Position numbers and translations under genes: made by a program | In this document: one piece after another, positions 5,584-50,403 of the stretch | Layout of the letters: every line of letters begins with the position of its first letter | How positions within the stretch are numbered: the first letter of the stretch is position 1 | Notes under the pieces: model-generated | Told to the model about the DNA's origin: nothing | What the model saw: only the letters and a program-made list of their open reading frames with translations | The model's database searches: none | IMG/VR virus record: IMGVR_UViG_3300019886_000006 | Coordinates: 1-58,136 of that record | Strand: one strand, 5' to 3' | Origin: a virus | Lineage: Duplodnaviria; Caudoviricetes | DNA: 58,136 nt

Positions 5584-5847
5584 ATGATTAAAGATATTAA
5601 AGACTTAGCCAAGGTTATATCACTTTGTCGTAAGACAGGTGTTGCCTTTCTTAAACTAGGTGATTTAGAACTCCAATTAGGTAATTCTCCTATTAAACCG
5701 TCTAAGTTCTTATCAGAGATTCCTGAAGCTAACTTGAAAATACCTAAACCTAATCTAATCGATCAAGGTCCAGATATCATCGAAACACCAAATGCATTAT
5801 CAGAAGAGGATCAACTCTTCTATTCCGCTAGAGAGCATAATAACTAA
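5584..5847 (+). CDS. Hypothetical protein
   Basis: Stop overlaps the portal start. Confidence 0.7.
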   Translation: MIKDIKDLAKVISLCRKTGVAFLKLGDLELQLGNSPIKPSKFLSEIPEANLKIPKPNLIDQGPDIIETPNALSEEDQLFYSAREHNN

Positions 5848-7760
5848 TGAAGGTTAAAGCCAGCAAAGCTCCTAACTCAGTTACTTTCAAGACAAAGCCA
5901 GACATGGCTAACATGACTCTTGAACAATGGTGGACAGTAAAGGACTCAGACAAGGCGGCATCTTTTATGCTGACTTCTGCCGCATATTTAAAAGAGTCTC
6001 AGAATTTTATATACCGACAAACATCAATATATGCAAGGCTTTATGGAAATCAGTCTCTATACTCTTTCGCTGGGGCCAATACGAATAAGATGGATGACCA
6101 GAAAGGGCTTCCGCAAGACCGCCCCACATTTAACCTCATACAGTCTGTTACTGACACGCTGGTCTCTAGGATATCGCAGAGTCGCCCTCAGCCTGTGTTC
6201 CTTACCGACAATGGCGATTACAAACAACGTAACCTCGCAAAAAAGCTCAATAATTTCATCCAAGGCGAGTTCTTCTCGACTAAGGCTTATGAAAAAGCCA
6301 CAATAGCACTAAGAGATGCATTAGTCCAAGGCACTGGTATTCTTCATGTATATGAAACTCCTGATCATAAAGCCGAATTAGAAAGAGTACTTCTTACAGA
6401 GTTACTTATAGACCCTAATGAAGGTATGTATGGAAACCCGAGACAACTTTATCGTATGAAGTTAGTTGATCGTGATGTCCTTCATGCAGCATTCCCTAAA
6501 CTAGAAGAAAAGATTATTCTAGCAGCTAAAGGTACCCCAGACAATAGCTCAGACTCATCTAAATAAGTATCAGACTTAGTAATGGTAGTAGAAGGATGGC
6601 ATCTACGTTCAGGTAAGAATGCCAAAGACGGTAGACATACCTTGGCTATATCTACTGGCTCATTATTAGATGAAGAATATATCAAAGATAGATTCCCGTT
6701 CTCATTTATTCATTACTCACCAAGACTACTAGGTTTTTGGAGCCAAGGTGTAGCCGAACAGCTTATGGGAACGCAAATGGAGCTGAACTCAATTTTATAC
6801 ACTATCTCTAGAGCAATTAAACTAGTAGGTGTACCAAGAGTATTCCAAGAAGACGGTTCTAAAGTCCTTAATGCCGCCCATAACAATGAGATAGGCACGA
6901 TAGTAAAGTATCGAGGTACTAAGCCAGAATATGTAGTAGCTCCTTGTAATGCCCCAGAATTATACGCCGAAAGGGATAAGCTCATATCTTATGGATACCA
7001 ACAATCGGGGGTATCAGCCCTACAAGCATCTAGTCAAAAGCCTCAAGGCCTTGACTCAGGTGAAGCTATCCGAACGTATGACGATATTAGTACAGATCGT
7101 TTTGCTAGTCTTGCTCGTCGCTATGATAATCTTTTTATCGACTTAGCCTATCAAATAGTTGATCTTGCTAAGGATATCGCAACAGAACAAGGCGAGTATA
7201 GCACTGTTTATCCTAACAAGAATGGAACAAAAGAAATCGACCTTCCTAAAGCAGCAATGATAGAAGATGCATTCATTGTACAGTGCTTTACACAAAGCTC
7301 ATTGCCTAAAGACCCAGCAGGTAGATTAGCCAAAGTAACTGAGATGGCACAAGCAGGTATGATAAGTCTTCAAGAAGCACGACGATTACTTGATTATCCT
7401 GATCTAGAACAGATAGAAAAGCTAGCTAATGCTGCCGAAGAGCGTATCTTATCGATACTTGATGATATCATAGAATCAGGTAAATACACAAGTCCAGACC
7501 CTTTCATGAACCTAGATCTTGCAACACAGCTAACAACCCAGTATATAAACCTATACGCCCCAGCTAAACTTGAAGAAGCAAAGATGGCTAAACTAAGAGA
7601 CTTCTTTTCCCAAGTCCAAGACCTTAAACAAGCAGCACAACCTCCACAGGTAGCACCCCCTGGTGCTCCAGGAGCCTCACCACAAGACGGAAGCCCACAA
7701 GCCGTACCTCAGGCCCCAAATCAATCTCCTTTATTACCAAACGCTCCTCAGGCCTCTTAA
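5847..7760 (+). CDS. Portal protein, interrupted by one in-frame TAA at 6564-6566
   Basis: ORFs 5847..6566 and 6582..7760 share one frame and join to ~637 codons; position after terL and before scaffold/MCP; Pro/Gln-rich tail as in P22/T7-type portals. Confidence 0.8.
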
Positions 7761-7916: not shown

Positions 7917-8947
7917 TGAAAATCATTCCAGTAGCTAGTCCACATGCCGTAGCCCCAGTAACAAGTAATGCTACTGCTGCTAGGGCTAAAGCCATAGAGG
8001 CATTTAAAGCCGCTTCACCCACACCTGATGTTAATACCCAGGCTCAACCTCCAGTAAATCCTAATTCAGTCCAAGTAGAAGAGCTAGGCGCAGTAAAAGC
8101 ATCTCAAGCCCCTGAAACTACTGAAGAAACTGTAGAGCAAAAAGCCCAAGTTGAAGTCAAACCAGAACCAGCTAAACCTGTTTCTGAAGAATGGGCGAAA
8201 CTTGCAAGACAAGAAAAAGCAATTCGTGCCAAAGCCCAACAACAAGAACAAGCCTTTAAACAACGTGAAGCAGCATTACTAGCTAGAGAATCAGAAGCCA
8301 AGTCCAAATCTGAGTTCAACCAAAAAGGCTATGTCTCATTAGACCGTATTAAAGCAGATATCCTAGGTGTAGCACAAGAAGCAGGTATCTCATATGATGA
8401 GATAGCTAATCAGATGCTTAACCCATCTAAAGTCGATCCTAGAACCCAAAGTCTATTAGACAAGATGCAAGCCAAAATAGACGCTCTTGAAAAATCTACT
8501 TCAGAAAACTCTACTAGACAGACTGAGGCTCAACAACAAGCCTATAACTCAGCTGTACGTCAAATCGAATTAGATACTAAAGCCTTGATTCGATCAGAAC
8601 CAGATATTTTTGAAGCCATTAACCAAACAGGCTCTATTAAAGATGTAGTAGAACTCATCACAGAGACATTCAACAAAGATGGTATCCTCATGACTGTCGA
8701 AGAGGCAGCACATGAAGTAGAACAATACCTCGTAGAAGAGGCAGAAAAACTTAGTAATATGAAAAAAATCCAGAGCAAGCGAAATGCGGCCCAAGTACAA
8801 GCCACACCAGCTAAAACGCAGTCACCAAGCTCGCAATCTCAGACAAGTCAGTCAATAAAAACCTTGACAAATGCCACATCTAGCACCCGGAAGTTGGGAG
8901 CCAGAGAACGTGCTCTATTAGCATTTAAAGGCGAATTAACAAAATAA
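7916..8947 (+). CDS. Capsid scaffolding protein
   Basis: Ala/Gln/Glu-rich coiled coil directly upstream of the MCP. Confidence 0.7.
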   Translation: MKIIPVASPHAVAPVTSNATAARAKAIEAFKAASPTPDVNTQAQPPVNPNSVQVEELGAVKASQAPETTEETVEQKAQVEVKPEPAKPVSEEWAKLARQEKAIRAKAQQQEQAFKQREAALLARESEAKSKSEFNQKGYVSLDRIKADILGVAQEAGISYDEIANQMLNPSKVDPRTQSLLDKMQAKIDALEKSTSENSTRQTEAQQQAYNSAVRQIELDTKALIRSEPDIFEAINQTGSIKDVVELITETFNKDGILMTVEEAAHEVEQYLVEEAEKLSNMKKIQSKRNAAQVQATPAKTQSPSSQSQTSQSIKTLTNATSSTRKLGARERALLAFKGELTK

Positions 8948-8994
8948 TCTGACATGGTGTTGGGTTATAAATTTTAACATTAAGGAGAATTATT

Positions 8995-11315
8995 ATGGCA
9001 GCAATTTTTGCCAATAGTTCGAATCAAATTGCAGCTCTTAAAGAGCTGTATACAGACGATTAATCCTTGTCGTCTGATGTTCGTGATCATGTATGAAGGA
9101 ATACATGAAAGATCTAGTGTATAAGGAAAATCCATTCCTTGCACTAGTTCCAAAAGATGAGAGCCCCGACGGTTTTGCTGGTAAATATATTCCAGTTCCA
9201 TTGGAATATGGCAATCCTCAAGGACGTTCTCATACATTTAGTAATGCGCAAAATCAACAAACAGCTACTTCGCTTGTTAGTTTTTTCGTGTTTGTTATTG
9301 AAGATTACCAATTGGTAACGATCACTAACTTACTTATGGAACAAACCAAAACAAACGCAGGTGCATTTGTAGATGCAGCAAAATTACAAATGGACGGTAG
9401 AGTCTGCCGCTCGACTTAGTAATAAGTCGATGAAAATTGGTCAAATACGGTGAAGGCTGAAATGCTAATACCGTGCTAAATACGTATCATAATAGGACGT
9501 ATCAGTGTAACGCGTAGTACTTGAAACTGTCAACTAGATTTGATAGAATAAAATAGTACCAAGAGTGACCAAAAACCCTCGGGGTTTAAAATGTACGCTG
9601 AACTAGATCAAAAAATTTGTACTAAGGATGGACAATTACATTCATTATCAGATTTTCATAAGAATAAAAATCGTAAAGATGGTTATTCTGCTTGGTGTAA
9701 GATTTGTAAGTCTGAAGCAGATGCTAAAGGTTACAAAAATAATCCTAGCAAAATTAAGCTAGCTACTAAAATGTGGAAAGCTAAAAATTCTGATAAAGTA
9801 AAAGTATCAAATGCTGGATATAAGAAACGAAATCCAGATAAAGTGAATGCTAATACTAGAAAGTACAAACGAAAGAATAGAGGAGTAACTAATGCTAATA
9901 CTGCTAAACGCAGAGCAGCATTATTACAAAGAACTCCCAAATGGTTATCAAAGACTGAACTAAATCAGATAAAAGATTTATACAAAGTCGCAGCAAAACT
10001 AACCATTTCTAGAGGAGTTTCTTATGAAGTAGATCACATTATTCCGCTGCAAGGCGAGAATATTAGTGGATTACATGTTCTTTCTAATTTACAGATTCTT
10101 ACGCAAGATGAAAATATTCGTAAGAAAAATAGATATAAGATCTAGAAGTAAAGGATAAAAAGCCTTTACGATAACATGCGGGATTCCGCAATATCACGAA
10201 CAATATCGCTAAACTCATTGGCGATATTAAACCCACTCTGATTGACTTGGACGCCTAGAAGTAGGTAACAGGGCGCAAGGCTTAGGCCAGCGTGAACGAC
10301 TAAGTGAGAGGGCGGCGAAAGCTGATGCGATAGTCTGAGCTACCGTATAACATAATAAGCGGTAGAGGTTAGCAGAAATGACTAACCCCGGTTAACCCCG
10401 AGTAACAATCTGTTTGAGTTGTTTGGTGATGGTACAGCAACACGCGGTACGACTACAGCAGCATCGACTCAAGTCGGTGGTACAGCAGTAGGCGGAGTAA
10501 CTCTCCCACTTTCAAATGCAAATCAAATCGTTGCATTCGAAGTAGGTCAGTTGCTTGTGGCTTCGGCTACACCAGGTGGTGCTCCAAGTACAGATACAGT
10601 CCTTGTAACTGCGGTTAACCGTGCAACAGGTGTGATTAATGGTACAGCGTCAGCTGCGACATTAAGCGCTAACTGGGCGATTGGTACAGGCGCGGCTTCA
10701 TTGACAGTATCAGGTGATCTACCGTCTACAGGAGCAGCTAATACTGGCTCGTTTTTGGCTCTTTCAGGCTTAGCGGCTTGGATTCCAACAACTAGCCCAA
10801 GTACTACTGACTCTTTCTGGGGCGTGAATCGCAGTGCAGATCCTACAAGATTAGCTGGCCTACGGTTCAATGCCGCAAGTCAGACAATTGAAGAAGGTAT
10901 CACTAATGCATTGGCATTCACTAACCGTGAAGGCGGTAAACCAGATCTTTGTATCATGGACTTTGCATCATATGCAGGACTTGTTAACGCATTAGGCGCT
11001 AAAGTCCAATACGTTGAGGTTAAGCACGATGAAGTAGAGGTTGCTTTCGAAGGTATCACGTTCCAATCAGCATATGGTCGTGTAACGATCCTGGCTGACC
11101 GCTCGTGCCCTCCGCAGACAGCTTATCTTCTTACCATGACTACATGGAAGATGCGAAGCCTTGGCAAAGTACCCCATATCCTTACTTATGGTATGGAAGG
11201 CCTAGAAGGCTTACGTGTAGGTAATGCAGATGCGTTAGAAATCCGAATTGGCTATTATGGCAATTTGATTTGTAGCGCTCCAGGCTTTAACTGTGTTGTA
11301 ACTCTGTCAAGCTAA
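8995..11315 (+). CDS. Major capsid protein, spliced: join(8995..9060,9096..9398,10181..10210,10413..11315), 433 aa
   Basis: AAGGAG SD plus ATG 8995; the joined exons read MAAIFANSSNQIAALKELYTDD/KEYMKDLVYKENP...KLQMDG/GFRNITNNIA/FELFGDG...; every junction is U|...G with P1/P10 pairing; HK97-like C-terminus; terminator follows. Confidence 0.88.
9061..9095 (+). ncRNA. 35-nt group I-type mini-intron with no catalytic core
   Basis: P1: CAGACGAU (9053-9060) pairs with GUCGUCUG (9069-9076), U.G at the junction; P10: UCCUU (9064-9068) with AAGGA (9096-9100); ends in G; removal restores the frame. Confidence 0.75.
9399..10180 (+). ncRNA. Group I intron (782 nt) carrying an HNH homing endonuclease
   Basis: P1 CGGU/GCCG; P2 hairpin 9411-9430; P3 UUGGUCA (9437) with UGACCAA (9566); P7 GCGUA (9512) with UACGC (9594); P10 GAGUCU/GGAUUC; terminal G at 10180. 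Confidence 0.88.
9591..10145 (+). CDS. Intron-encoded HNH homing endonuclease
   Basis: 'EVDHIIPLQGENISGLHVLSNLQILTQDENIRKKN' HNH motif; N-terminal Cys motifs; lies inside the intron. Confidence 0.9.
   Translation: MYAELDQKICTKDGQLHSLSDFHKNKNRKDGYSAWCKICKSEADAKGYKNNPSKIKLATKMWKAKNSDKVKVSNAGYKKRNPDKVNANTRKYKRKNRGVTNANTAKRRAALLQRTPKWLSKTELNQIKDLYKVAAKLTISRGVSYEVDHIIPLQGENISGLHVLSNLQILTQDENIRKKNRYKI
10211..10412 (+). ncRNA. Compact ORF-less group I intron (202 nt)
   Basis: P1 AAUAUCGCU/GGCGAUAUU; P7 GACUA (10298) with UAGUC (10331); P9 CUACCG/CGGUAG; P10 AACUCA/UGAGUU; terminal G at 10412. Confidence 0.9.
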
Positions 11316-11346
11316 CCTAACTAATAGAGCTTAATGTTCTATTTTG

Positions 11347-11381
11347 AGCCAAGATGTAAAAGTCTTGGCTTTTTCTTTTTT
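11347..11381 (+). terminator. Rho-independent terminator after the MCP
   Basis: AGCCAAGA...TCTTGGCT stem followed by a T-run. Confidence 0.85.
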
Positions 11382-11399
11382 ATGGTGTATTATTAATCT

Positions 11400-11696
11400 A
11401 TGAAAACCACACAAGCGCGAATGTATGTTGAAGCAGTAAAATATTGTGATTATTATATTAACAGTGACAGGAGGAGCTTTAGATCTGGATGGCGCTCCCG
11501 CGACAAAGACCTCAAAGTTCAACTTGGGTTGCCGAATGAGTGTGACTTAGAAGAAGTGGTGCTGAAGATGAAAGAGGCGCTGAAGTTTACGACAGAATAT
11601 TCAGGCGGGATATATCCCGAAGATGACCACGAACATTTGTGTAAGGCAAAAGTTAAATGTTATTTTGCCCTCGCGCCATTCAAGAAAGTGGAGTGA
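11400..11696 (+). CDS. Hypothetical protein (accessory island)
   Basis: First of a chain of overlapping small ORFs. Confidence 0.6.
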   Translation: MKTTQARMYVEAVKYCDYYINSDRRSFRSGWRSRDKDLKVQLGLPNECDLEEVVLKMKEALKFTTEYSGGIYPEDDHEHLCKAKVKCYFALAPFKKVE

Positions 11697-24274: not shown

Positions 24275-25696
24275 ATGGGGTTCGTTTCCGGGTTGCTCGG
24301 CACTGCTGGCGGTGTTAATGGCACAGGTATAGATGCGCCATCTAAAGCCAATATACTTAACCCAACAACTACGGCTCAAGCTGGTACAGCATACAATGCC
24401 AACCAAGCAGCACTCAATCAACAAAACGCATTCTTAGCAGCTACCCAAGCCCAAAACGGTCTTGGGAACCAAACCTCGATATTCAATCAACTCCAAGGTG
24501 TTACTAATGGTACTGGTCCTAATCCAGCACAGGCTGGATTAGCTCAAGCCACGGGTGCCAATGTGGCTAATCAAGCCTCATTAATGGCCGGTCAAAGAGG
24601 CTCAGGAGCCAATGCAGGATTGATTGCACGTCAAGCAGCTATGCAAGGTGCTAATACCCAGCAACAAGCTGCAGGACAAGCCGCAACACTTCAAGCAACA
24701 CAAAGTCTTAATGCCTTGAACTCTCAAGGTGCAATAGCTAATACCCAGGCAGGTCAACAAGCCGCTGCTACAGGTGCTAATACTGCTGCCCAACAAGGCG
24801 AACAATCCCAAATCTTAGGTGGAATAGCCTCTCAAAACAATGCTAATGTAGGCATGCAATCAAGTATTAATTCAGCTAATGCTGGATTAGCAGGTACATC
24901 TATGCAAGGTCAACAAAATCTATTAGGTGGTATTACTGGTGGAATAGGATCAGCTTTAGGATTAGCCCAAGGCGGTAAAGTTCCTAGTTATGCATCTGGC
25001 GGCGGAGTATATGCAGATACTACTACAGATAACTTCGATACTTCTAATCAAAGTCCAGTAGATGTCTCTGGTACAGGTATGACTATTACTCCACAAGCAC
25101 CGACTACTCCTACATTATCTCAGCCTGGCCAATCACAAGTTAAAGGGCCTAAATCTAAAATGGCTCAGATGTTTGGTAGCCCAAATAAAAGTGGTCAACT
25201 TTCAGGTACAACTCTTGCAGGTAATACTATAGGTCAAGGTATCGGATCAGGAATAAAAGCATTATTTGGTCATAATGGTACAGCAGAAGTCAATAATGCA
25301 GCTGCTCAAGGAGCTGCACAAGCCCCCGGCGATACATCAGGCGGAACTATGGATAACTCAGGCCAATCAACTCCTGCAAATATCGGCGATATAAATAATG
25401 CCGAAATGAATGCAGCTCAAGGCGGTAAAGTACCAGCTATGCTATCTAAAGGAGAAGTGTATCTATCTCCTGATAAGGTAAAAGCAGTTTCTAAAGGTAA
25501 AAAAGATCCACTAAAAGCAGGAGAAAAAATACCTGGTAAACCAAAGCATCCAGGGAATGACTATCGCAATGATGTGGTGCCTAAGACGCTCAAAGAAGGC
25601 GGCATAGTAATACCAAATAATATAATTCAAGGCCCAAATCCTCATTGGAATGCTATGCGCTTTGTTCATCAAACGCTGAAAAATGGCAAAAAATAA
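24275..25696 (+). CDS. Internal virion (ejection) protein
   Basis: Gln/Ala/Gly/Asn-rich; AxGG motifs; 'VPAMLSKGE' motif; podovirus ejection-protein position. Confidence 0.7.
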   Translation: MGFVSGLLGTAGGVNGTGIDAPSKANILNPTTTAQAGTAYNANQAALNQQNAFLAATQAQNGLGNQTSIFNQLQGVTNGTGPNPAQAGLAQATGANVANQASLMAGQRGSGANAGLIARQAAMQGANTQQQAAGQAATLQATQSLNALNSQGAIANTQAGQQAAATGANTAAQQGEQSQILGGIASQNNANVGMQSSINSANAGLAGTSMQGQQNLLGGITGGIGSALGLAQGGKVPSYASGGGVYADTTTDNFDTSNQSPVDVSGTGMTITPQAPTTPTLSQPGQSQVKGPKSKMAQMFGSPNKSGQLSGTTLAGNTIGQGIGSGIKALFGHNGTAEVNNAAAQGAAQAPGDTSGGTMDNSGQSTPANIGDINNAEMNAAQGGKVPAMLSKGEVYLSPDKVKAVSKGKKDPLKAGEKIPGKPKHPGNDYRNDVVPKTLKEGGIVIPNNIIQGPNPHWNAMRFVHQTLKNGKK

Positions 25697-26247
25697 TGAT
25701 TATTTATAAAGCTACTTCAAAGACTTCAGGCAAAAGCTATATTGGACAAACGCGAAGTTCATTAAGAGAACGTAGACAAGGTCATTACGATAATTTAAAA
25801 AGATATAAAAATGCTTTGGGTTTAGCCATTACAAAATACGGTAAAGATGATTTTGAATGGACTATTATTCAAACTTGTGAAAGTATTGAAGAATTAAATA
25901 AGGCAGAAATTAAATGCATTAAAGAATTTAACACTGTAACCCCTAATGGCTATAACTTAACTACTGGAGGAGAAGGCGGTTACATTAGATCTGAAGAAAA
26001 TAGATTAAAAATAAGTAAATCTAAACTAGGAAAAACCCCTAAAAATCACTCTGCTTTATTTAAAAAGGGCCATAGACTTAGTCCTGAAAATGAGTTTAAA
26101 GGAACAGAAGTAATTAATTTAGAGAGCGGCGTTGTGTACAAAAGTATAAGAGATGCTGCTAAAGCTCATACTATTAATCATAGTACTTTAGCGTGGCGCT
26201 TACGACGTAAAACTACTAAGCAATTTGCGTATGTAGGAGCAGAGTAA
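25696..26247 (+). CDS. Free-standing GIY-YIG homing endonuclease with NUMOD-type DNA-binding segments
   Basis: 'IIYKAT...SYIGQT', 'GYNLTTGG', 'EENRLKISKS', 'YKSIRDAAK'. Confidence 0.9.
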   Translation: MIIYKATSKTSGKSYIGQTRSSLRERRQGHYDNLKRYKNALGLAITKYGKDDFEWTIIQTCESIEELNKAEIKCIKEFNTVTPNGYNLTTGGEGGYIRSEENRLKISKSKLGKTPKNHSALFKKGHRLSPENEFKGTEVINLESGVVYKSIRDAAKAHTINHSTLAWRLRRKTTKQFAYVGAE

Positions 26248-28541
26248 TGGCTAATATCAAATTAGATTTATCTAAAGTAAAACATGTTAAATCAGATGAA
26301 AGATCTACTACTCTTAGACATCAAGATGGTCATACAATCCACCTCCTTCATTCAGCATTAGCCCCAGAAAATAAAGCCCAGCTTCAAGCCCTTTCAAAAA
26401 TCTCTAAAGATGCCTCACAATCCGTAGATCAAAAGATGGCCTATGGCGGTGACGCTGTACGTAAAGCAGGAGCAGATTTCAAAAAGTCTACCGGCGCTAC
26501 TTATGGTATGACTCCAGAAACTCCTACTGTAAGTCATGTCGAAGGTGACGTAAGAACTCCCGAACAGAAATCTAAAGCTGAACATTACTATGATACTCCA
26601 GCGCCTTCAACTTCAGACCAAACTCCACAAAATACAGATGAAGACGGTTATCATAAAATGGCTAAAGGTGGAGAAGCCGAGTTAAGTGGATCTGGTTCTC
26701 CTGCTAATCCTATAGATAGACCTGATAAAGGTTTCGGATCTGTGATTGTTAAAGCCGAAGGCGGCAAAGTAGCCAAATACTGTATGTATTGTGGTGGTAT
26801 GGCGCATGGCGGTGAGTGTACTTCAGATAAACCTATGATGGCTGAAGGCGGAGACCCAGTAGATCAAATCGATCAAGCTGTTCCTCAATATGCAAACAAA
26901 GTCTCTTTAGAAACACCTTCAGCTAAAGTCGAAGATAGTCGTAGTCCAGCCCAAGCCAGAACAGAAGCTCTTTATAACCAACAAAGCTCTGGTATGACTA
27001 ATTTCGGTGCAGCTAAAGGTACTTTGCCAGATGAAGAACAGATGTTCGGACCTCAAGGTCAAGCTCCTCAAGCCTTTAATCCTGAGAATTATAAGATAGC
27101 CCAAACTCAATTTGCTGAAGAACAAGCCGATAATGCAGCTAAAATAGCCGGGGCTCAACAACAAGCAATCCAACAAAATCAAGTCCGTGCCCAAGCAGGA
27201 CTTCCTTTACTACCAGTTCCTAATACACCTCAAGGACCACAAATACCTGGTTCTGAAGAAAGCCCGCCACCAGGGACAGATAATCCACAAGATCCATCAG
27301 GTCAAAAGGCTATTACAGCCGCAGCTACACAGACTGACCCTACAGATCCTTATGCAATGCTTCAGTCAGGTTATAAACAACAACTTGCTGGTATTCAAGG
27401 TAAAAGTTCTGCTGAACAACAACAAGCCAAGGCTAATGCCGATATATTGGCAACTGCTCAACAAGCCAAGGCTACAGCATTATCGAACTATCAAGATCAG
27501 TATGCCGATTTAGAACAAGAACGTCAGCATCATATATCTGATATTCGCGAAGGCTATATCGATCCAAACCGATATTGGACAGGCGATAAAGATGGCAATG
27601 GGTCTCATTCTAAGTTAGCAGCAGGAATAGGCATGATTCTTGCAGGTTTTAACCCAACAAATAAGCCTAATGCTGCAATCGAATTCCTTAAATACAATAT
27701 GGATAAAAACATGCAAGCCCAAGTCGCAAATCTTGGCGCTAAAGAAAGTATGTTATCGGCTAATCTACGTCAATTCGGTAATATAAAAGACGCTACAGCT
27801 ATGACTCAGCTTATGCAGTCCGATATGATACAGAATAGCCTACAACAAGCCGCAGCAACAGCTGCAACTCCTATGGCTAAAGCCGCTGCTTTAACAGCAG
27901 CAGGACAGCTAAAACAACAAGACGCTCCTATGTTCCAAGAATTCGCTATGCGTAGAGCCATGATGAATATGGCTAATAATGGTACAGGAGACACCAATTC
28001 AATAGAACATATGATGGGTTATATGCGTGCAATCAATCCTAAAGCCGCTGAAGAAATGGAATCTAGATATGTACCTGGAGTAGGTATAGGATCTGTTCCT
28101 GTTCCAGAACAAGGCCGTCAACAAATCATCTCATCAAAGAACGTAAATGATCTTATGAATGCCTCATTACAATTCTCAGCACAGCATAAAGGTTCATTAG
28201 ATCCTCATGTATTAGCTCAAGCCAATACTATCCAACAACAGCTTATAGGATCTATTAAGAACGCCCAACACGATGGTGTGTATAAAGAATCTGAAGCCGA
28301 TTTTCTTTTGAAACAAATCGGAGGTAATCCAGCCTCTTTCTTAGCTGGTATATCATCTGTGCCAAAGATTCAAGAACTCCAAAATATTAAACAAATGGAA
28401 TATAAAAATCTTTTGAATACCTATGGTATCAAAGGAAAAGCCCTTCCTCAAACCTCTCAAAACGAAGGCCAAACCGCTACTAATCCCAAGACTGGCGAGA
28501 AGATCAAGATGGTTAATGGCAAATGGACATCGGCTAAGTAA
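26247..28541 (+). CDS. Internal virion protein
   Basis: AxGG repeats; Gln/Ala-rich helices; position. Confidence 0.65.
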   Translation: MANIKLDLSKVKHVKSDERSTTLRHQDGHTIHLLHSALAPENKAQLQALSKISKDASQSVDQKMAYGGDAVRKAGADFKKSTGATYGMTPETPTVSHVEGDVRTPEQKSKAEHYYDTPAPSTSDQTPQNTDEDGYHKMAKGGEAELSGSGSPANPIDRPDKGFGSVIVKAEGGKVAKYCMYCGGMAHGGECTSDKPMMAEGGDPVDQIDQAVPQYANKVSLETPSAKVEDSRSPAQARTEALYNQQSSGMTNFGAAKGTLPDEEQMFGPQGQAPQAFNPENYKIAQTQFAEEQADNAAKIAGAQQQAIQQNQVRAQAGLPLLPVPNTPQGPQIPGSEESPPPGTDNPQDPSGQKAITAAATQTDPTDPYAMLQSGYKQQLAGIQGKSSAEQQQAKANADILATAQQAKATALSNYQDQYADLEQERQHHISDIREGYIDPNRYWTGDKDGNGSHSKLAAGIGMILAGFNPTNKPNAAIEFLKYNMDKNMQAQVANLGAKESMLSANLRQFGNIKDATAMTQLMQSDMIQNSLQQAAATAATPMAKAAALTAAGQLKQQDAPMFQEFAMRRAMMNMANNGTGDTNSIEHMMGYMRAINPKAAEEMESRYVPGVGIGSVPVPEQGRQQIISSKNVNDLMNASLQFSAQHKGSLDPHVLAQANTIQQQLIGSIKNAQHDGVYKESEADFLLKQIGGNPASFLAGISSVPKIQELQNIKQMEYKNLLNTYGIKGKALPQTSQNEGQTATNPKTGEKIKMVNGKWTSAK

Positions 28542-39605: not shown

Positions 39606-40029
39606 AAATAACCTTTTCTAATTTTGTTAAATCGTTTATCATCTCTAGTAAGTATTCGTAGTATTCTTTTAGTTTATTCTGGTTAGCCGCTGCATGAGCT
39701 GCATAAGCCGCTGCATGAGCTGCATAAACCGCTGCATTAGCCGCTACATAATTTGCATGAGCCGGCGCATAAACTGCATAAACTGCTGCATGGTACGACA
39801 TTGCATAAGCTGTCTTAGCAGCATCTATTAGCTCTTTCTGTGTTACAGAGTTTTTATCTTTAAGCCATTTCTCTACTAAGTCTAATGCCTTGTCTATTAA
39901 GACTAGGTTTTTAGGATCTGTACATTGTCGTGCATCCTTGGCACAATACAGAGCAAAAGTTACACATAATTCTCTAGGCAATGGCTTTAATAATAACTTT
40001 ATCTTTTGTTCATAGTTGATTTTACTCAT
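39586..40029 (-). CDS. Ala/Tyr-repeat helical protein with a C-terminal LTKLEKVIYG; paralog of 15285..15737
   Basis: Direct sequence similarity. Confidence 0.8.
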   Translation of the reverse strand: MSKINYEQKIKLLLKPLPRELCVTFALYCAKDARQCTDPKNLVLIDKALDLVEKWLKDKNSVTQKELIDAAKTAYAMSYHAAVYAVYAPAHANYVAANAAVYAAHAAAYAAHAAANQNKLKEYYEYLLEMINDLTKLEKVIYGLDFN

Positions 40030-41197
40030 TACTCGCCTTTACAAAAATCTGCTTTCCAAAATTTGCAGGAGGTTTTTGTGTTCCTACAGTAGCCCAAAGT
40101 ACAGGGTATTTAGGTTTATTTGGGGTATCAGAACTATCCATATCTCCGAAATATATTACACAGTCGACTTTAGGGACATATTTATTGTAAAAATCAAAAG
40201 CAGGTTGGTATGCTGTTCCTCCTCGACCTTTAAATGTATAAGTCTTTTTAGGGTTGAATTCATATGAGTTCTTTATCTCGCTATCTGCCTCTACTACATG
40301 GATATTGGCGTATTTAGACATCTTTGTTATTTCGGCTAAGAATTGTGATAATGACTCATCACTAACACTTCCAGATGTATCTATAGCAACCCCTACATTC
40401 AATTCTTCTATTTTAATACTACCTGGTATTGTAATTCCATACCGTCTATTTCTTTTCTTTTTAGATGATTCAAGTTTAACCTCAAGACTATGCGCCACGA
40501 ATTGTTTTAACTGTTTGCGCCAGTCAATAGTTTGAGAATTATTTAATTTAGAGACTAATAATTCATGTTCTGCTGTCATAGTTCCTGCTGCTCTAGTTCT
40601 TTTAGCTGCACCATTAATAACTTGCCGTATTTTTTCTTTCAAAGTCTCTTTATTACCATCAGACTCTAACCAAAGCTCATGACCTTGACCTCCGCCTATC
40701 ATTTCTTTCATCTTATCATTATTTTTAAGATGTTCGGCATAATATTCCATTGTCTCCCCGTCTTTAAGAGAAAATAATTTAGGATACATCCCTCCTTTAG
40801 GAAGATCAACTAATGAATAGTTTATTGCACAATCCGCTGCTATATTAAGTCTTTGATGTTTCTGGGTATTAATGATATTATCTGCAATTTTATCAACATC
40901 ATTTTCATATTTCTTAACTTCATAAATCTCAGGAGCTAGATCTTTGAATCTACTAATATGATTTCTTAGTATATGCTCACACTCGTGCTTAAGTATAGCT
41001 ACTCTCTCATTTATTGTTAGTTTACAGAAGAAATCCGGATTTATATGGAGTTCTACTACATCTTTTATACAAACTCCTGCGGTAGGGATTCTTCTAGAAA
41101 TCACACGCCTCATTTGACATATGATTTCTCCATAAAATCTTTCAGATTCTAATAAAGCTACAATAGAATCTGAAAGATTATCATTATACGATTCCAT
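40022..41197 (-). CDS. HExxH metallopeptidase plus VWA domain protein (DUF2201-like)
   Basis: 'HECEH', 'NIAADCAIN', MIDAS 'IDTSGS', 'GRGGT', 'FGD'. Confidence 0.9.
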   Translation of the reverse strand: MESYNDNLSDSIVALLESERFYGEIICQMRRVISRRIPTAGVCIKDVVELHINPDFFCKLTINERVAILKHECEHILRNHISRFKDLAPEIYEVKKYENDVDKIADNIINTQKHQRLNIAADCAINYSLVDLPKGGMYPKLFSLKDGETMEYYAEHLKNNDKMKEMIGGGQGHELWLESDGNKETLKEKIRQVINGAAKRTRAAGTMTAEHELLVSKLNNSQTIDWRKQLKQFVAHSLEVKLESSKKKRNRRYGITIPGSIKIEELNVGVAIDTSGSVSDESLSQFLAEITKMSKYANIHVVEADSEIKNSYEFNPKKTYTFKGRGGTAYQPAFDFYNKYVPKVDCVIYFGDMDSSDTPNKPKYPVLWATVGTQKPPANFGKQIFVKASNE

Positions 41198-50116: not shown

Positions 50117-50159
50117 ATATTTAACAAAATTAGAAATAGTTATTTATGGCATCTCTTAG
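50109..50159 (+). CDS. 16-aa mini-ORF that is almost only the motif (MSKYLTKLEIVIYGIS)
   Basis: Overlaps the SbcC stop and contains the Endo VII ATG. Confidence 0.6.
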   Translation: MSKYLTKLEIVIYGIS

Positions 50160-50403
50160 TAAATTATACCCGACTAGAGAAATCAATAAAATAAGAGATG
50201 ATCTGATTTTTAAATATGGAAATCAATGTGCTATTTGTAAAAAACCAAGATCAGCATTCAAAAAAAATCTATCTGTTGATCATGATCATAAAACTAATAA
50301 AATCAGAGGCTTACTTTGTTTTAGATGTAATAAGTTCATTGTTGGAAGGCATACAATGATTACGGCTACACAGATTCTTGATTACTTAAAGAAATACGGA
50401 TGA
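50146..50403 (+). CDS. Recombination endonuclease VII
   Basis: 'CAIC...LSVDHDHKTNKIRGLLCFRCN'. Confidence 0.9.
   Translation: MASLSKLYPTREINKIRDDLIFKYGNQCAICKKPRSAFKKNLSVDHDHKTNKIRGLLCFRCNKFIVGRHTMITATQILDYLKKYG

Follow-up and report, generated by a model that had tools for sequence, protein, structure and literature searches.

The window analyzed here, that is, the whole stretch of 58,136 bp that makes up the complete virus record IMGVR_UViG_3300019886_000006 (Caudoviricetes), carries a capsid gene whose reading frame is broken three times, namely, by an insert of 35 nucleotides (nt) at positions 9061 to 9095, by a 782-nt intron at 9399 to 10180 (intron 2), and by a 202-nt intron at 10211 to 10412 (intron 3), all on the plus strand. 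The gene, which appears weakly SU10_MCP-like from its sequence, starts behind a directly read Shine-Dalgarno sequence, AAGGAG (8982 to 8987), in place of which relatives have AGGA or AGGAG. From the ATG at 8995, the frame runs through the 22 codons of exon 1 (8995 to 9060), which end in GAC GAT and match the N terminus of uninterrupted homologues, and is then closed by TAA at 9061 to 9063, the first codon of the insert. The frame of exon 2 (9096 to 9398) is closed upstream by TGA at 9084 to 9086; therefore, a single frameshift would be unable to connect the two frames. The remaining coding parts are exon 3 (10181 to 10210), 10 codons encoding GFRNITNNIA that were placed by homologue alignment, and exon 4 (10413 to 11315), which includes the stop codon and gave weak matches to SU10_MCP and phrog_9953. 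Joining these four exons yields a protein of 433 amino acids with no internal stop, which aligned without gaps to an uninterrupted homologue (P0001) with 404/433 identical residues.

Homologue comparison located the breaks precisely. With exon 2 as the query, 2022 homologues with an E value of ≤0.001 were obtained among 2116 candidates, and all 14 that were fetched read without a break over the ELYTDD-KEYMKD junction (or close variants of it) as well as over both later interruptions, the junction being exactly GAT/AAG. Thus, the contiguous YTDDKEY expected by an initial annotation made from the sequence alone, or a close variant of it, was present in every case, and its capsid frame, its 35-nt insert, its 782-nt and 202-nt interruptions, and all of their boundaries were borne out by homologue colinearity. 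An equivalent of exon 1 was found in all homologues examined. Among 80 related viral loci, 78 were uninterrupted, one (L052) began within exon 2, and one (L040) carried a 37-nt insert at the same GAT/AAR site together with a 740-nt intron 23 nt downstream.

Reading and folding of the 35-nt insert, hereafter termed a mini-intron, revealed the splice-site elements of a group I intron at both of its ends. The last 8 nt of exon 1, CAGACGAT (9053 to 9060), face an internal guide, GTCGTCTG (9069 to 9076), in the minimum-energy fold, forming an 8-bp P1 helix in which U9060 is the U of a U.G pair at the 5' junction. Between the in-frame TAA and the guide lies TCCTT (9064 to 9068), the strand of a 5-bp P10 helix, which complements the first 5 nt of exon 2, AAGGA (9096 to 9100), directly 3' of the insert. 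The insert ends with a G at 9095, the position of omega-G, and this residue was invariant in relatives although its position was left unfixed in the search pattern. The 3' tail (9077 to 9094) contributes a further element that the initial annotation had not seen: its bases 9087 to 9094 pair with exon 2 bases 9101 to 9108 in an 8-bp hairpin that holds G9095 and the P10 target inside a 6-nt loop, so that P10 would connect two hairpins loop to loop. The splice-site fold of the window reached −20.4 kcal/mol (z = −3.27), and its tail/3'-exon duplex reached −9.3 kcal/mol, which was equaled by 10 of 300 shuffled tails. To our knowledge, group I introns do not have such a tail/3'-exon hairpin as a standard element. 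The 19 nt that remain beyond P1 and P10 are insufficient for a P3-P9 core or a G-binding P7; lacking both, the mini-intron cannot be autonomous. A group II or group III intron was also considered and rejected: group II introns have 5' GUGYG and 3' AY boundaries and domains V and VI, while the insert starts with TAATC, ends with TATG, and had no Rfam match.

To place these elements against chance, a strict filter was applied in which an 8-bp P1 starting with U.G had to adjoin a 5-bp P10 of Watson-Crick pairs and a terminal G had to be present. The filter matched the window once, precisely at 9060/9095; its background was 12 matches in 894 kb of sequence from uninterrupted relatives and 3 in 581 kb of shuffled window sequence. 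Taken by itself, the motif is thus close to the level of chance; its exact fit to the frame-restoring boundaries is not. A Logan contig from run X2, possibly the source sample, covered 8800 to 9074 without a difference; the Logan contigs were of low depth, and none spanned the entire insert. The exact 35-nt sequence gave no match in viral_contigs. Homologous inserts at the same site in 16 further sequences from other contigs indicate that the insert is not an assembly artifact, a possibility that the initial annotation had raised against itself.

The mini-intron of the window belongs to a family. Pattern scans of viral and metagenome contigs, filtered by tblastn, yielded 17 distinct mini-introns at this site (site 22), including that of the window, with lengths of 35 to 48 nt and the 16 others on separate contigs. 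A first loose pattern had returned at least 116 loci, with 3 capsid genes among the matches listed, and tighter patterns were then used. A separate scan with the conserved large-intron core gave 31 loci, including 18 capsid relatives; among the 13 noncapsid loci, the mini-intron filter matched once, at 336 to 292 on the minus strand of L301 and opposite to the core, probably by chance given the background rate. Mini-introns at other sites of the capsid gene were found in L282 (two), L283, L287, L289, L299, and L309 (two), lying after about codons 30 to 32, 37, 48, and 53 in L282, L287, L289, L299, and L309. The total was 25 mini-introns of 30 to 63 nt in 23 genes on separate contigs, at no fewer than seven sites, the smallest being the 30-nt element of L289, whose P1 needs a bulged base.

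The boundaries of the eight mini-introns outside site 22 were set by alignment and by eye. Protein scoring placed a boundary with a 5'-exon T and a terminal G among the equal-best solutions for four of the seven tested (both of L282, that of L289, and the first of L309). For L287, the single best solution was a longer deletion with the same end residues, judged to be an end effect of a distant reference, and for L283 and L299, no such boundary was among the best solutions. These three were thus placed by eye, and the strict scan recovered the boundaries of L287 and L299. A DNA alignment (A2) cleanly confirmed only that of the second L282 element, and that of the second L309 element was taken from the strict scan.

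All mini-introns shared one layout, with the P10 strand directly 5' of the P1 strand, and each of those at other sites was complementary to its own flanking exons. A terminal U of the 5' exon was present in 25/25 (fixed by the pattern in the site-22 set), and a terminal G of the insert was likewise present in 25/25, including 21/21 pattern matches in which its position was left free. Every one of the 25 had an in-frame stop ahead of the guide within its first five codons (read by eye in the second L282 element). A P1 of at least six contiguous pairs was formed in 22 of the 25 and a P10 of at least four pairs in 24. Mini-intron lengths were spread over the three frames (11/5/9), so that simple read-through is impossible. 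Tail sequences varied widely from site to site. Most tails can also pair with the exon that follows; the tail/3'-exon duplexes summed over the 25 mini-introns came to −210.3 kcal/mol, compared with −122.4 ± 10.3 kcal/mol for shuffled tails, a signal that was missing in the site-30 group, L221, and L231.

Covariation analysis of the 17 site-22 sequences (alignment A1) revealed that 96.3% of the P1/P10 cells were paired. The covariation score was 0.176, compared with 0.061 ± 0.015 after shuffling (0/500 shuffles reached the observed value), and the signal was lost when the partners were slid against each other. Three pairs showed double changes, namely, the seventh pair of P1 (AU, 8; CG, 4; GC, 1; GU, 1; UA, 1), position 3 of P10 (UA, 12; CG, 4), and position 6 of P10 (UA, 5; CG, 2; GC, 2; AU, 1). 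The exon-side partners change at synonymous sites, indicating that changes in the exons are followed by the guide. At the 5' junction, U.G, which the search pattern had fixed, occurred in 17/17 sequences, and such an invariant pair is meaningful in sense-strand RNA only. These sequence comparisons argue that selection, and not chance, accounts for P1, P10, and the terminal G, and the initial annotation's view of them as splice-site elements gained support both from the 17 variants and from the recurrence of the layout elsewhere in the gene.

The two large interruptions downstream were placed by homologue alignment, and both have a U at the 5' exon end, a terminal G, and a guide forming P1 and P10; in relatives, a unique solution with these end residues existed at the best protein join for 11/12 large-intron boundaries. 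Intron 2, a candidate helper, carries an open reading frame (ORF) at 9591 to 10145 with HNH/endonuclease VII PHROG matches, and its core covaries and is common to the introns of relatives. RNAalifold analysis of nine related intron 5' parts (alignment A3; 9399 to 9590 in the window) gave 34 pairs, 24 of them with compensatory changes, in a structure with P4-P6-like helices and a P7-like R/S helix. Intron 3, a second candidate helper without an ORF, folded more stably than its shuffles (z = −3.79) and has a directly read 9-bp P1 with U.G; by eye, its GACUA/UAGUC resembles the consensus of R and S. Two further pairings tried by eye were rejected: that of the mini-intron tail with the helper's P3-like partner strand, formed by 5/7 pairs in the window and by none in L040 and L125, and that of the P7-like S strand with the conserved beginning of the HNH ORF, which was uncompensated in L250 and L121.

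Large introns occupied at least ten positions within the capsid genes of the set (L040 to L309), and the first 135 codons are an intron hot spot, with three introns lying within two bases of one another near the Val30/Tyr31 codons. Like the mini-introns, they begin with a P10 strand followed by a P1 strand, and mostly they end in a shared 3' motif. In L309, an interruption of ~181 nt was also observed at capsid residues 90/91, flanked by tblastn matches at 1178 and 996 on the minus strand, which is above the size of a mini-intron and below that of an ORF-bearing intron. In addition, the core of intron 3 (10236 to 10351) had 72 to 77% identity to unannotated stretches of four GenBank phage records (Caudoviricetes sp., two Desulfovibrio/Nitratidesulfovibrio phages, and Roseobacter phage CRP-118); this type of intron thus extends beyond the capsid family.

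The distribution of the mini-introns was strictly tied to that of the full-size introns. All 23 mini-bearing genes had a full-size HNH-carrying intron downstream of the mini-intron (in 20 of the 22 loci other than the window, the intron 2-homologous core was detected by blastn, and the remaining two were read directly), while mini-introns were absent from 78/78 intronless relatives. None lay beyond the last full-size intron in the 10/10 genes covered to the C terminus, a position that fits a tethered substrate awaiting a later-transcribed core. In L304/L295, a related capsid gene contained a full-size intron without a mini-intron. This asymmetry, with introns occurring without mini-introns and no mini-intron without an intron, is what a helper-dependent element predicts.

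As to the origin of the mini-introns, repeated deletion of the core at several sites is the simplest explanation. Over the family, the similarity of the tails to the 3' ends of full introns summed to 218, compared with 187.7 ± 8.3 for shuffled tails and above all 200 shuffles; individually, it was clearest in L121/L237 (0/200 shuffles as high) and L221 (1/200). Moreover, the L287 mini-intron and the first one of L309 occupy sites that bear full-size introns in other phages. At the site of the window itself, the initial annotation had proposed a search for a full-length intron in related phages, and no full-size intron with the window guide was found at TDD/KEY among the seven matches in viral_contigs. 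It had also taken the occurrence of GTCTGA both in the P1 3' strand and just after P7 of intron 3 as a hint of a microhomology deletion within this phage. This hint is unsupported, because the element is of an old family whose members carry other bases after GTCGTC.

From the covarying pairings, the conserved end residues, the recurrence at several sites, and the strict co-occurrence, we infer both that the insert is removed at the RNA level and that the core of a neighboring intron is the catalyst; we give a probability of roughly 55% to the insert being a core-deleted group I-type intron spliced by the core of a downstream intron. According to PMC3984707, P1 and P10 of group I introns form the substrate domain and the G site lies in P7. 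The mini-intron would have kept the substrate side of such a ribozyme, i.e., the P1/P10 guide, the terminal G, an exon-pairing tail, and a stop before the guide, and the pairing of the tail with exon 2 would put the 3' junction in a hairpin loop opposite the P1 loop. As the insert has no space for a catalytic core, the core of a full-size intron on the same transcript is invoked: the core and G-binding site of intron 2 or intron 3 would dock the ready-made P1/P10 substrate and perform the two transesterifications, joining GAU to AAG. On unspliced RNA, ribosomes would terminate at the stop of the insert after 22 codons. According to the same paper (PMC3984707), an in-frame intron stop is thought to release ribosomes and so help the intron fold; the early stop of the mini-introns may likewise free ribosomes and may, in addition, block aberrant capsid subunits from unspliced RNA. 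The complete intron would then be a small RNA-only splicing enzyme, with the mini-introns as its nonautonomous riders. For the family as a whole, we consider the chances about even that these genes hold a natural two-part group I system, in which substrate-only mini-introns of 30 to 63 nt arose by repeated core loss at no fewer than seven sites and are spliced by downstream cores.

Several points weigh against this interpretation. Rfam called neither large intron, which the initial annotation had taken as group I: a search over 8500 to 11500 at an E value of ≤1 returned nothing relevant and no group I intron, and intron 3 alone had no match at an E value of ≤10. In the HNH-bearing intron type, the P3-like partner strand, which is the 3' strand of a long-range helix with strong covariation, follows the P7-like helix instead of lying between P7 and P8, giving a nested arrangement and not the canonical pseudoknot, and with this unusual helix order, the helper is unproven as a standard group I ribozyme. 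The tail of the window, thought by the initial annotation to resemble those of the two full introns, was no better than shuffled sequence (198/200 shuffles scored as high), such likeness being confined to some relatives. The gap between the mini-intron and the next intron is 303 nt in the window, the longest of all, compared with 23 to 240 nt in relatives. The 17 site-22 mini-introns are one family by descent, so that the co-occurrence counts overstate independence, and the linkage of mini-introns with introns could also reflect co-conversion during intron homing. Among GenBank phages, there was no relative of the capsid protein and no cultured relative of the phage; a search for sequencing runs containing the phage returned five DNA runs and no RNA run; and the open-access literature yielded no report in which a natural group I core acts on a preformed P1 foreign to it. 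Finally, the portal gene has an in-frame TAA (see below), and the window genome may be defective or contain an error. Overall, the initial annotation's interpretation, a coreless group I intron spliced by a neighboring ribozyme, stood as regards the splice-site elements and the link to full introns (23/23 and 78/78), and fell short as regards the tail, the GTCTGA hint, and recognition of the large introns by Rfam.

RNA removal on a group I-type guide remains the best reading because explanations at the level of translation and of dead alleles fit poorly. It is unlikely, though the least so of the alternatives, that the insert is removed on its own P1/P10 guide by something other than the neighboring core, such as protein machinery, an HNH splicing factor, or a ribozyme elsewhere. 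The covarying guide shows that an RNA splint aligns the exons but is silent on the catalyst, every co-resident intron of the intron 2 type has an HNH ORF, so that co-occurrence is unable to separate an RNA from a protein catalyst, and the large introns are unrecognized by Rfam. However, group I chemistry is marked by just such an invariant 5' U.G and invariant terminal G, HNH proteins act as nucleases on DNA, and no RNA ligase or RtcB-like family was detected among the 67 ORFs of the window (PHROGs, E ≤ 1e−5). Excision by the mini-intron and its flanks without any helper has very little to recommend it: small self-cleaving ribozymes of comparable size do exist, and the two hairpins with a kissing P10 make a compact conserved unit, but 30 to 63 nt offer no place for a G-binding helix or a conserved core, the tails differ widely between sites, and both the strict co-occurrence and the upstream position would be left unexplained.

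The insert might instead stay in the RNA and be dealt with by ribosomes. In the bypass of T4 gene 60, a short noncoding gap has a stop after the take-off codon and a stem-loop containing that codon, and the window resembles it in having a gap in an essential phage gene, a stop directly after GAU (9058 to 9060), that GAU in a stem, and a second GAU (9111 to 9113) exactly 50 nt on from which the product would be in frame. Unlike in gene 60, however, no matched codons flank the exact gap (the last sense codon equals the codon before exon 2 in 0/25 mini-introns), and the guide pairings to both exons covary. The stop adjoins GAU in only 1/17 site-22 mini-introns, with one or two sense codons intervening in the other 16; the would-be landing site encodes Asn, not Asp, in L208, L220, and L250; and a GAU-to-GAU hop would remove six conserved residues. 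Restart at the ATG at 9093, with which the insert ends in frame with exon 2, would give a 22-amino-acid peptide plus the remaining capsid protein, but several mini-introns end in ACG, CCG, CTG, or AAG, most mini-introns lack a preceding Shine-Dalgarno sequence as read by eye, and genes with two mini-introns would yield at least three capsid fragments. With the P1/P10 covariation explained by neither, a translational solution of either kind is highly improbable. Equally slim is the chance that no insert is ever removed and that all are inert remnants of decayed introns, carried by defective or misassembled genomes. The data consist entirely of metagenomic assemblies, and the portal gene of the same genome has its premature TAA; on the other hand, the family comprises 25 inserts in 23 genes from separate contigs, compensatory changes preserve P1 and P10, the stop and the terminal G are conserved, and the downstream capsid exons are open for ~300 to 400 codons in 10/10 fully covered genes.

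Other features of the window genome were noted as well. The portal gene is split by the in-frame TAA at 6564 to 6566 into ORFs at 5847 to 6563 and 6582 to 7757, while in 67/67 relatives that codon specifies Ser or Thr in one continuous gene; the TAA may reflect a nonsense mutation, an error in sequencing, or a split portal. Genes of homing endonuclease type occur at 25645 to 26244 (GIY-YIG), 40025 to 41197 (large HNH), and 50146 to 50400 (short endonuclease VII/HNH). The first of these lies between long ORFs at 24275 to 25693 and 26247 to 28538, a location that may mark another invaded gene. No tRNA genes were found in the window.

Self-splicing group I introns occur in protein genes of phages, for example, in T4 td, nrdB, and sunY. 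The mini-introns resemble such introns in lying in an essential phage gene beside introns that carry homing endonucleases and in having a guide P1 with U.G, a P10, a terminal G, and an early in-frame stop (general features in PMC3984707), but differ in their size of 30 to 63 nt and in having neither a P3-P9 core nor a G-binding helix. Degenerate organellar group II and group III introns need trans-acting factors, and spliceosomal introns have been proposed to arise in this way. Like them, the mini-introns have lost their catalytic parts and would have the catalyst supplied elsewhere, although they are of a different intron class and chemistry. The Tetrahymena and sunY ribozymes act on trans substrates or guides in vitro. 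For a group I core, that of Azoarcus, PMC2709566 describes activity in vitro with a guide supplied in trans. The proposed core resembles those systems in docking a P1 helix not covalently organized with it; the trans ribozymes are engineered, whereas the split of the mini-introns would be natural, recurrent, and selected, with both parts on one mRNA. No report of coreless group I mini-introns was found in open-access papers and preprints.

Inserts of this size disrupt gene calls in phage metagenomes: the capsid gene here appears as a 22-codon ORF plus a truncated gene, and annotation pipelines will therefore miss or miscall such genes. The system is small and directly testable, since both partners lie on a 1.5-kb transcript and the natural variants are ready-made compensatory mutants. 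Group I introns are the textbook self-catalyzing introns, and the mini-introns, if the interpretation is true, would represent a natural ribozyme acting on a separate substrate. They would thus provide a living model for the shift from self-splicing to trans-acting splicing, a much-debated transition for which group II introns and the spliceosome are the usual subjects of discussion.

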